NCBI RefSeq assembly: GCF_030651185.1
Contig: NZ_JAUSCJ010000041.1
Location: 93,693 to 157,692, forward strand
From: Phenylobacterium sp.
GTDB taxonomy: Bacteria; Pseudomonadota; Alphaproteobacteria; Caulobacterales; Caulobacteraceae
Direction of reading: 5' to 3'
Length of the DNA: 64,000 bases
Both the position numbers and the translations under genes were made by a program. This document shows, in pieces, positions 2 through 2,403 of this stretch; positions within the stretch are counted from its first letter, which is position 1; the number at the start of each line of letters is the position of its first letter. Below the pieces are notes generated by a model. It had not been told where the DNA came from. It ran no database searches and saw only the letters and a list, made by a program, of their open reading frames with translations.

Positions 2-418
2 GTGATCATCCTCGACACCAACGTGGTGTCGGAACTGATGAGACCGATCCCCTCCGAGGTCGTGCGGGCTTGGCTGTCCAATCAGCCCAGCGAAACCCTC
101 TTCACGACCACCATCACACAGGCCGAAATCCTGTACGGCGTGGCTCTGCTGCCGGAGAGTCATCGGCGCACCATGCTTCTGGCCGCCGCAGAGCAGATGT
201 TCGCCATCGACTTCGCCGACCGGGTTCTGCCTTTCGACGGATCGGCCGCCAAGGCCTATGCGAAATTGGCGGCCGATCGCCGGCGCGAAGGACGACCTGC
301 AGGCGCTTTAGACGTCCAAGTCGCCGCGATCGCTCAAGCGTGCGGCGCTTCTGTCGCGACGCGAAACGTCACGGACTTCTTGGGCTATGGGCCAACGATC
401 ATAGATCCCTGGGCATAG
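2..418 (+). CDS. vapC: PIN-domain VapC toxin (type II TA); antitoxin presumably just upstream of the window
   Basis: MIILDTNVVSE N-terminus, D..IAAIA and ATRN..DF PIN motifs; GTGA at 2-5 fits stop/start overlap with an upstream gene. Confidence 0.9.
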   Translation: MIILDTNVVSELMRPIPSEVVRAWLSNQPSETLFTTTITQAEILYGVALLPESHRRTMLLAAAEQMFAIDFADRVLPFDGSAAKAYAKLAADRRREGRPAGALDVQVAAIAQACGASVATRNVTDFLGYGPTIIDPWA

Positions 419-505
419 GGCCCAGACTGTCCGGACACCTTTTTCCTGTCACACGGGCGCGACATAGGCTTGGCTAGCCTCGCTCATCCTTTCGAAGACC
501 GCACC

Positions 506-838
506 ATGACCGAGCCCAGACGACTGAAGAAAAGCGAATCCCTGGAGATTCGGATTCCGTATCCGACCAAGGAAGCCTTCATGGCCCGTTGCCGGGCCGA
601 TGGCCGCTCGGCCAGCGAGGCCCTGCGCGCCTTCATCGACCAGCAGCTGGAGGCGCCGGCCAAGCCGCGGGTCTCCCGCAAGGGCCTGCGCCTGCTCGTC
701 GGGGCCGCGATCGCCGCGGCGGTTGGCGCTGCGGCCCTGCCGTCGCTGGCGCGCCCCAGCGTGGCCGCGGCCCAGTTCGAACGCATCGACACCAACCACG
801 ACGGCGTCCTCAGCCGCGCCGAGTACGCCGCCCGCTAG
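506..838 (+). CDS. Small protein: ribbon-helix-helix-like N-terminus, hydrophobic helix, C-terminal EF-hand
   Basis: SLEIRIPYPTKEAFMARCRADGRSASEALRAFI (Arc/CopG-like); LLVGAAIAAAVGAAALP; DTNHDGVLSRAEY EF-hand loop. Confidence 0.7.
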   Translation: MTEPRRLKKSESLEIRIPYPTKEAFMARCRADGRSASEALRAFIDQQLEAPAKPRVSRKGLRLLVGAAIAAAVGAAALPSLARPSVAAAQFERIDTNHDGVLSRAEYAAR

Positions 839-1653: not shown

Positions 1654-2403
1654 TCAGTCCGGACAGACCTCGTCGAGCGCGGCCAGCAGCCGGGCGAGGT
1701 CGGCAGGCCGCGACAGCCGATGGTCGCCGTCCTTGATCAGGCTGAAGACCACGTCGTCGCTGTTCAGCGCCTGGGCCAGCTCCAGGGCATGGCGCCAGGG
1801 AACATCGGGATCGGCCCCGCCCTGCAGGATACGCACCGGCGCGGTGATCGGCACGGGGCCCGGCAGGATCGACCAGCGGGCGCCGTCCTCCAGCAGATTG
1901 GCGGTGATCGGATAGGGCTCGCCATAGTCGCTGGGCCGCAGCCAGACGCCGTCTCGCGCCAGGGCCTCGCGGCCGGCGGCGTCGATCTCGGGCGCCATCA
2001 GCTTCTCGGTGAAGTCGGGTGCGGGCGCGATCAGCACCAGGGCCTTGATCCGGTCGGCGCGCACGGCGGCGGCCAGGCAACTGATCCAGCCGCCCATGGA
2101 GGAGCCCACCAGGACAAGCGGTCCCGCGGCGAGGTCGTCGATCACCGCCAGAGCATCCTCGCGCCAGCGGGTGATGGTCCCATCGGCGAAGTCGCCGCTG
2201 GACTCGCCGTGGCCGAAATAGTCGAAGCGGACATAGGCTCGGCCCCGCGCCTGCGCCCAGTCCGCGATCGCCGCCGCCTTGGTCCCGGCCATGTCGGAGC
2301 GGAAGCCCCCCAGCCAGACCACGGTGGGACCTTCGCCCGCCACGCGCCGCCACGCCACGCGCTCGCCGTCCGGCCGCGCCAGGAAACCCGTCTCTTCGCT
2401 CAT
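1654..2403 (-). CDS. Alpha/beta hydrolase
   Basis: GSSMGG nucleophile elbow, RFDYFGHGES, DGDHRLS. Confidence 0.9.
   Translation of the reverse strand: MSEETGFLARPDGERVAWRRVAGEGPTVVWLGGFRSDMAGTKAAAIADWAQARGRAYVRFDYFGHGESSGDFADGTITRWREDALAVIDDLAAGPLVLVGSSMGGWISCLAAAVRADRIKALVLIAPAPDFTEKLMAPEIDAAGREALARDGVWLRPSDYGEPYPITANLLEDGARWSILPGPVPITAPVRILQGGADPDVPWRHALELAQALNSDDVVFSLIKDGDHRLSRPADLARLLAALDEVCPD

Follow-up and report, generated by a model that had tools for sequence, protein, structure and literature searches.

Layout of the locus

The window, by which we mean the whole stretch of 64,000 nucleotides of Phenylobacterium sp. DNA that was analysed, carries a short gene whose predicted product joins an RHH DNA-binding domain, a membrane helix and an EF-hand. 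We refer to this RHH / membrane helix / EF-hand protein as RTE. Its gene lies between a vapC gene and a convergent gene for a paralogue of signal peptidase I, here called S26p (Table 1). The reading frame translates to 110 amino acids plus a stop codon, so that the length of 111 aa given in the original prediction has to be corrected. A chance open reading frame can be ruled out, because a word-indexed search gave 479 homologues at E<=0.01, an exhaustive search gave 260 clusters at 50% identity with E<1e-10, and about 25 positions, mostly in the RHH domain and the helix, are invariant in the family. A literature search returned no paper describing RTE, no paper joining an RHH domain, an EF-hand and a transmembrane segment, and no treatment of RHH together with signal peptidase in the sense of RTE; no NCBIfam model covers the protein. 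The earlier remark that no characterised example of the architecture was known is in line with this outcome, and RTE is apparently a small, conserved membrane protein that has gone undescribed.

Table 1. Features of the RTE-S26p locus, with positions in the window.
Feature	Positions	Residues	Strand	Evidence or remark
vapC (PIN domain)	2-418		+	PF01850, E 3e-11; context only
Operator-like box TGTCCGGACA, perfect 10-bp palindrome	428-437		.	78 nt upstream of RTE ATG
Promoter-like element TTTTTCCTGTC after RTE box	440-450			
Promoter-like element GGCTTGGCTAGCC after RTE box	467-479			
RTE gene (RHH / membrane helix / EF-hand protein)	506-838	110 codons + stop	+	No internal stops
RHH DNA-binding domain (predicted)	542-652	13-49	+	AF2, Foldseek, Pfam RHH_1, invariant columns
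Signal-peptide-like membrane segment	677-751	58-82	+	Conservation in 196 family members
Single EF-hand, periplasmic (predicted)	755-832	84-109	+	Pfam, AF2, family profile
Ca2+ loop of the EF-hand	788-823	D95-E106	+	
S26p, signal peptidase I paralogue	835-1590	251 aa from ATG 1590	-	PF10502, TIGR02227; convergent with RTE gene
Tandem boxes upstream of S26p, TGTCCGGACA and AGTCCGGACA (one mismatch)	1635-1644 and 1656-1665		.	21 bp centre to centre

The stop codons of RTE and S26p overlap in the palindrome CTAG (835-838), and the two transcripts must therefore overlap at their 3' ends, which makes antisense interference possible. In two relatives (loci L001 and L004) the RTE and S26 genes abut or overlap by at most 8 nt. 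An alpha/beta-hydrolase gene (1654-2403, minus strand) is found directly upstream of S26p on the same strand. Since the distal of the two boxes upstream of S26p begins at the hydrolase stop codon, any read-through into S26p would cross both boxes.

On the other flank, the RTE gene starts 88 nt past the PIN/VapC gene, and its position directly downstream of vapC is as first described. An RHH-type vapB lies just upstream of the window (L139:1190-1398) and ends 4 nt inside vapC, completing a toxin-antitoxin pair unrelated to RTE. As this complete vapB is present and RTE homologues have unrelated upstream neighbours, the adjacency to vapC is incidental. The functional link to vapC that had been considered was rejected, given the complete vapB-vapC pair upstream, the upstream neighbours that vary between genomes, and the conserved promoter region that RTE has of its own.

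Domain structure of RTE

The three-part layout proposed in the original prediction agrees with our analysis, with an RHH domain at residues 13-49, one hydrophobic helix at residues 63-78 and an EF-hand loop from D95 to E106. We built an AlphaFold2 model of the monomer from an alignment of 107 sequences, in which the homologues are at least 53% identical; the model is of moderate confidence (pLDDT 75). It gives the N-terminus the RHH fold that had been read from the sequence, with an extended stretch at residues 12-19 and helices at 21-32 and 36-49, and pLDDT exceeds 90 over residues 21-50. The domain comprises a beta strand (LEIRIPY), helix A (21-32), a turn (G33-R34-S35) and helix B (36-49). 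Conservation in RTE is highest over the N-terminal 50 residues, and K8, K9, S10, E14 and R16 in the RHH region are invariant. When the model was compared with the PDB by Foldseek, nearly all matches were RHH proteins (AmrZ, ParG, Arc, CopG, ORF56, NikR, ParD, TacA and VapB), with an rmsd of 1.3-1.9 Å across 36-40 columns. The domain has only about 40 residues and the Foldseek E-values are for that reason not significant, so what we used from the list is the consistency of the RHH matches. Pfam RHH_1 matches RTE with E 0.009 and 16.4 bits, under the gathering cut-off of 20.5, and it matches at E<=0.1 in just 17 of 107 homologues. RTE carries a divergent RHH domain. RHH domains bind DNA as dimers.

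The membrane segment follows this domain and has the parts of a signal peptide: a basic n-region (R55, R58, K59 and R62), an h-region (L63-L78) that is rich in Ala and Gly, and a c-region (P79-S80-L81-A82) followed by R83-P84. The hydrophobic, Ala-rich helix noticed at the outset is thereby recovered, and in the AlphaFold2 model it extends over residues 58-81. The predicted N-in/C-out topology is backed by the four basic residues before the helix and the one after it. The h-region contains a GxxxAxxxG motif (G66, A70, G74) that is nearly invariant in the RTE family and would fit helix-helix packing in a dimer.

In the 196 family members compared, the helix ends in P-[S/T/A]-x-A. Position -3 is S, T or A in 196/196 members and position -1 is A in 194 of them; position +2 is P in 153/196, and the uncharged span is 20-21 residues long in 160/196. 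The motif type differs by subfamily (PSLA↓RP, PSAA↓xPD, PATA↓QPD), with the -3/-1 rule retained. In its basic n-region, its hydrophobic h-region and the small residues at -3 and -1, RTE has the make-up of signal peptidase I substrates. Since it comes after a folded domain of 55 residues, the segment departs from a canonical signal peptide, which would stand at the extreme N-terminus. The helix ends in a near-invariant site of the signal-peptidase-I type and may be a cleaved signal peptide, the case that was named at the outset as a refutation of the regulator model. Cleavage behind a folded RHH domain would make RTE a regulator controlled by proteolysis and would not abolish the model. Two observations speak against cleavage, namely that an uncharged span of 20-21 residues equally suits a stable, uncleaved anchor, and that Arg at +1 and Pro at +2 are atypical for efficient cleavage sites. 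An RR pair is found in 61% of family n-regions, but RTE itself has RK, and the spacing and the high hydrophobicity fit Tat poorly.

The EF loop at the C-terminus is canonical, as had been noted (D95-x-N97-x-D99-G100-x-L102-S103-x-x-E106), and the AlphaFold2 model places it between helices at residues 84-94 and 104-109. EF-hand_5 matches RTE with E 1.8e-4 and 21.3 bits, under its cut-off of 25.9. A profile of the RTE family matches solved EF-hand proteins at E of about 1e-8, and the EF loops are canonical in all of the 107 members tested. Most homologues have two or four hands and pass the Pfam EF-hand threshold. RTE has a single hand rather than paired hands in one chain, and EF-hand pairing in RTE would need a homodimer. 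An EF loop was found in 186 members, and in 143 of them the first loop Asp lies 11-12 residues past the putative cleavage site, which means that the entering helix of the first EF-hand starts 1-2 residues past that site.

S26p, an extra signal peptidase I that accompanies RTE

S26p is assigned to signal peptidase I by PF10502 (E 3.8e-52, 177 bits, cut-off 22.9) and TIGR02227 (166 bits, cut-off 47). The protein retains the Ser58/Lys119 dyad and box E (GDNRDNSLDSR). A search for residues specific to the S26p clade found only one conservative V/I change, and no mark of dedicated specificity.

The S26 gene is convergent with RTE and abuts it in the window and, on metagenome contigs, at L001 and L004, despite outer flanks that differ on both sides. 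An S26 neighbour is present at 27/29 sampled loci of the family and in 57/77 named genomes, among which contig ends interrupt several. The genome of the window has two S26 genes, and the other one is the housekeeping lepB, since it is followed by rnc. In a maximum likelihood tree, all 30 RTE-adjacent S26 genes fall in one clade (30/30), and the 45 lepB-rnc genes, taken from these and other genomes, lie outside it (support 98/100). At least two S26 copies are present in 35/35 RTE-positive genomes, and many non-carriers have one. We found three exceptions to the pairing: genome G422 has an S26p-clade gene and has lost RTE, and genomes G588 and G438 have RTE and lack S26p. In G588, which belongs to the same genus, the RTE gene stands alone amid unrelated neighbours (L131, G588:C19:72500-79500), and this suggests that RTE was relocated or acquired separately there.

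A third clade of signal peptidase I paralogues, adjoining neither rnc nor RTE, is found at L125, L126, L128 and L129 (genomes G405, G434, G574 and G550) in genomes without RTE, and tandemly duplicated or triplicated lepB genes lie upstream of rnc at L090 (G438:C10:78000-81900), L087 (G570) and L091 (G432).

Operator-like boxes upstream of RTE and S26p

The alignment of upstream regions revealed the palindrome TGTCCGGACA before RTE. The same box, paired with a one-mismatch copy, stands before S26p. The proximal box of the pair sits 54 nt before the S26p start, and on the S26p strand the tandem boxes are followed by the -35-like element TTTGATTGCC. Exact copies of TGTCCGGACA occur twice in the 4.12-Mb genome, both of them in the RTE-S26p module, and the tandem pair is unique genome-wide in this genome (G000) and in G594. 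A box with at most two mismatches is present in 26/26 S26p upstream regions. Tandem boxes 20-24 bp apart are found in 23/26 S26p upstream regions vs 0/44 lepB-rnc regions, and in those 23 regions they end 3-4 nt ahead of a -35-like TTCGCTGG or TTGATTG element. A generic scan for sigma-70 promoters and terminators found nothing useful.

Upstream of RTE homologues, including those of other orders, the arrangement of the box and TTTnCTGTC is kept. In distant homologues (other orders, Devosia) this box precedes the homologue's own gene, and a degenerate second one often follows after 21-23 bp; these homologues have no S26 gene nearby and a different periplasmic part. In several genera the RTE promoter lacks the box. 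The exceptions to the pairing of RTE with S26p would be in keeping with a regulatory role of the box. No genome other than G588 and G438, in which S26p is absent, has an exact or one-mismatch box before the lepB locus, and the only two exact boxes of the G588 genome lie before RTE and before lepB. G422, which has the S26p-clade gene without RTE, has no box. All three behave as a model in which RTE acts through the boxes would predict. The second lepB copy of G438 carries the box TGTCCGGACG plus TTTTTCC.

Other tandem boxes were sought in the genome of the window and in five relatives, and only the S26p site was found; the regulon therefore looks local. The relatives have further single exact boxes at roughly the rate of the controls, most of them inside coding sequence. 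In the literature, the sequence TGTCCGGACA appears only in unrelated p53 papers. The sole gene that always accompanies the box is the RHH gene, from which we infer, as the parsimonious reading, that the RHH domain reads the box; RTE would then regulate its own gene and, within Caulobacteraceae, also one for signal peptidase I. Covariation cannot be used to link the two, as neither the beta strand nor the box varies.

Distribution and variants of the family

RTE belongs to a large, unannotated alphaproteobacterial family. In 150 representatives the layout is constant, with an N-terminal [KR][KR]SE[ST]LEIR, a hydrophobic segment near residue 60 and one, two or four EF-hands, and the proteins range from 100 to 365 residues in length. 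With its one EF-hand RTE represents the minimal form, and two are found in most relatives, some of them of the same genus. The distribution is patchy: full-length matches to RTE occur in 35/201 sampled Caulobacteraceae genomes and in 6/19 genomes of the same genus, and such matches number only 3 in an even sample of 401 genomes across the class. Among the named carriers are Phenylobacterium ferrooxidans, P. aquaticum, P. conjunctum, Caulobacter ginsengisoli, Brevundimonas staleyi and Devosia spp.

Some members depart from this layout on the periplasmic side. P0151, P0174, P0211, P0214 and P0168 have the RHH front end, the helix and a PSLA-type site, followed by short, Cys-containing tails with no recognisable EF-hand. 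At the Devosia loci L225-L231 another periplasmic segment ends in a single DxDxNG loop. Because these tails and the differing Devosia segment share the RHH front end, the RHH-helix part seems to be a portable module.

Proposed mechanism and alternative explanations

We propose that RTE is a membrane-anchored RHH regulator of signal peptidase I that probably responds to Ca2+ and is probably itself a substrate of the enzyme. The position of the boxes near its own gene and near S26p points to a circuit that would control protein-export processing. RTE and S26p would together form a conserved, undescribed two-gene regulatory module. The genes are convergent and do not make up an operon, which counts against this reading. 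The original idea of a minimal one-component regulator in the membrane fits all our findings, and only its functional connection with vapC has to be dropped; S26p and the boxes did not figure in it. In our view it is likely that RTE, as an RHH regulator in the membrane, works through the TGTCCGGACA boxes on both S26p and its own gene. That the same regulator is in addition subject to feedback through its cleavage by signal peptidase is plausible, and we would place it slightly on the doubtful side of an even call.

In the proposed mechanism, RTE would reside in the inner membrane with the RHH domain in the cytoplasm and the EF-hand in the periplasm. The proposal demands that RTE dimerise, since RHH binds DNA as a dimer, GxxxAxxxG packs and a single EF-hand requires a second one. 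As a dimer, the RHH domain would bind the palindrome TGTCCGGACA at one box before its own gene and at two before S26p, where the boxes lie two helical turns apart and abut a -35-like element. As the dimer would bind boxes before both genes, RTE would set the transcription of S26p as well as its own. S26p may be activated, as the location of the boxes just upstream of the -35-like element hints. RTE would be cut by signal peptidase I (S26p or LepB) at P-S-L-A↓R-P, releasing a periplasmic EF-hand peptide, and the remaining RHH-helix stub would then be degraded or released. If RTE is cut in this way, the amount of active regulator would report the available peptidase activity, and the binding of Ca2+ would modulate access to the site, because the first EF-hand begins 1-2 residues past it. 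Taken to its full extent, the idea is that RTE is a transcription factor placed inside a signal-peptidase substrate, the uncut precursor of which would switch on a back-up peptidase from the tandem TGTCCGGACA boxes. A shortage of peptidase capacity, or masking of the site by Ca2+-bound EF-hands, would let uncut RTE build up, and cutting would remove RTE and close the loop. We put this complete circuit forward tentatively, and consider it rather unlikely to be right in every part.

The main rival has the same core as the explanation that we favour and differs from it only on proteolysis. RTE would stay intact as a sensor of the ToxR kind, in which Ca2+ and EF-hand pairing alter the packing of the helices, the geometry of the RHH dimer and thereby DNA binding; P-S-L-A-R-P would be a hinge, and S26p the regulated output, an alternative peptidase for certain Ca2+ conditions. 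The fold, the pairing with S26 and the boxes support it just as well. The uncharged span fixed at 20-21 residues has the length of a membrane-spanning helix, an EF-hand only 1-2 residues past that helix would allow rigid coupling, and both the nearly invariant GxxxAxxxG and the EF loops, canonical in 107/107 members tested, suit a sensor of this type. However, it leaves unexplained why a signal peptidase should be the sole conserved target, and why the -3/-1 rule holds in 196/196 members while the motif type changes between subfamilies; also, with a linker of only about 10 residues between RHH and helix, the target DNA would be held at the membrane. We regard this alternative as possible, if doubtful.

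It could also be argued that RTE is an exported EF-hand peptide with S26p as a dedicated maturation peptidase for its unusual, long signal sequence, in a role comparable to that of SipW for TasA in Bacillus. The N-terminal domain would then merely couple the expression of substrate and peptidase, or another factor would read the boxes. This would account for a signal-peptide-like segment and for a dedicated S26 clade co-inherited with RTE, and an EF-hand protein that is free in the periplasm and has an ordinary signal peptide is known from Caulobacter, namely CaBP (PMC13171946). Yet the N-terminal 50 residues, with their RHH fold, are the most conserved; the boxes go with the RTE gene across orders without a nearby S26p, and disappear where RTE is lost; and the periplasmic part has EF-hands in varying number, with another part in its place in some members. 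On this evidence we think the explanation improbable. An antitoxin-like RHH protein, linked to vapBC, co-transcribed with vapC and acting on the toxin, would be suggested by the place of RTE directly downstream of vapC and by the frequency of the RHH fold among antitoxins. RTE differs from a VapB-type antitoxin in lying downstream of vapC, and a separate and complete vapB of the RHH type overlaps the vapC start; its homologues adjoin unrelated upstream genes, and it has a conserved promoter and box of its own, so that this reading is almost certainly wrong.

Comparison with known systems

The cleavage that we propose for RTE has a precedent in anti-sigma factors. RsiV and RsiP undergo site-1 cleavage by signal peptidase, which is gated by ligand (PMC6066255, PMC4183432, PMC8844934), and RsiP of B. 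thuringiensis is cut by one particular paralogue, SipP (PMC8844934). Like RsiV (B. subtilis, C. difficile) and RsiP, RTE is predicted to be a single-pass protein with a cytoplasmic regulatory domain, in which the helix runs into a site of the signal-peptidase-I type and the extracytoplasmic ligand-binding domain starts right past this site. Unlike them, it has a DNA-binding RHH in place of an anti-sigma domain and an EF-hand as its ligand domain, and a peptidase paralogue is encoded next door that is apparently the regulator's own target; cleavage of RTE is a proposal. A search for anti-sigma matches in 107 RTE members gave a faint match to CnrY in 2/107 only, and no sigma gene is adjacent. 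RTE may work like RsiV, but it is not a member of the RsiV/RsiP family.

CaBP of Caulobacter vibrioides (CCNA_02838; PMC13171946), which comes from the same bacterial family, is a periplasmic EF-hand protein that responds to Ca2+ and is tied to envelope and stress regulation. We considered whether RTE and CaBP are the same protein and rejected this, as CaBP lacks a DNA-binding domain and has, besides three EF-hands, an ordinary signal peptide of 21 aa.

In its predicted topology RTE resembles ToxR, TcpP, CadC and VtrA, in which a single membrane helix likewise connects a DNA-binding domain in the cytoplasm to a sensor in the periplasm, and DNA is bound at the membrane. Those regulators have winged-helix domains of the OmpR type and far larger sensor domains, unlike RTE, and we know of none of this type with an RHH domain, an EF-hand or a signal peptidase as its target. 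In its DNA binding, RTE would be closer to MetJ, Arc, CopG and AmrZ, which have a beta-alpha-alpha fold and recognise short palindromes that are often repeated in tandem along one DNA face; the 8-bp met-box of MetJ is the closest in style to the RTE box. All four are soluble and, unlike RTE, have no membrane helix or exported domain.

The logic of the proposal is that of monitoring substrates, which feed back on export components (PMC7897499). In the pairs MifM and YidC2, and VemP and SecDF2, an export substrate feeds back on a component or on a back-up paralogue, as RTE would. MifM and VemP act by translation arrest within an operon, whereas the feedback by RTE would be transcriptional, with the DNA-binding domain fused to the substrate. 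No monitoring substrate for signal peptidase is known to us.

Implications

Signal peptidase I is an essential enzyme and an antibiotic target, and to our knowledge how bacteria regulate it is largely unknown. A dedicated regulator with a defined operator would make this regulation directly testable. RTE would add a fold, RHH, and a sensor, the EF-hand, to the short list of membrane-bound one-component regulators, and it would be a concrete bacterial candidate for a sensor of periplasmic Ca2+. If the feedback through cleavage is true, the principle of the monitoring substrate would extend from translocation (SecM, MifM, VemP) to the removal of signal peptides, and signal-peptidase-gated proteolysis would extend from anti-sigma factors to a direct DNA binder. 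RTE would then be the first monitoring substrate for signal peptidase I, and the module would keep the last step of protein export in balance by itself, as a homeostat that takes Ca2+ as a second input. With 110 residues and a 10-bp operator, RTE would be among the smallest conceivable transmembrane signalling devices, and could serve as a tool.
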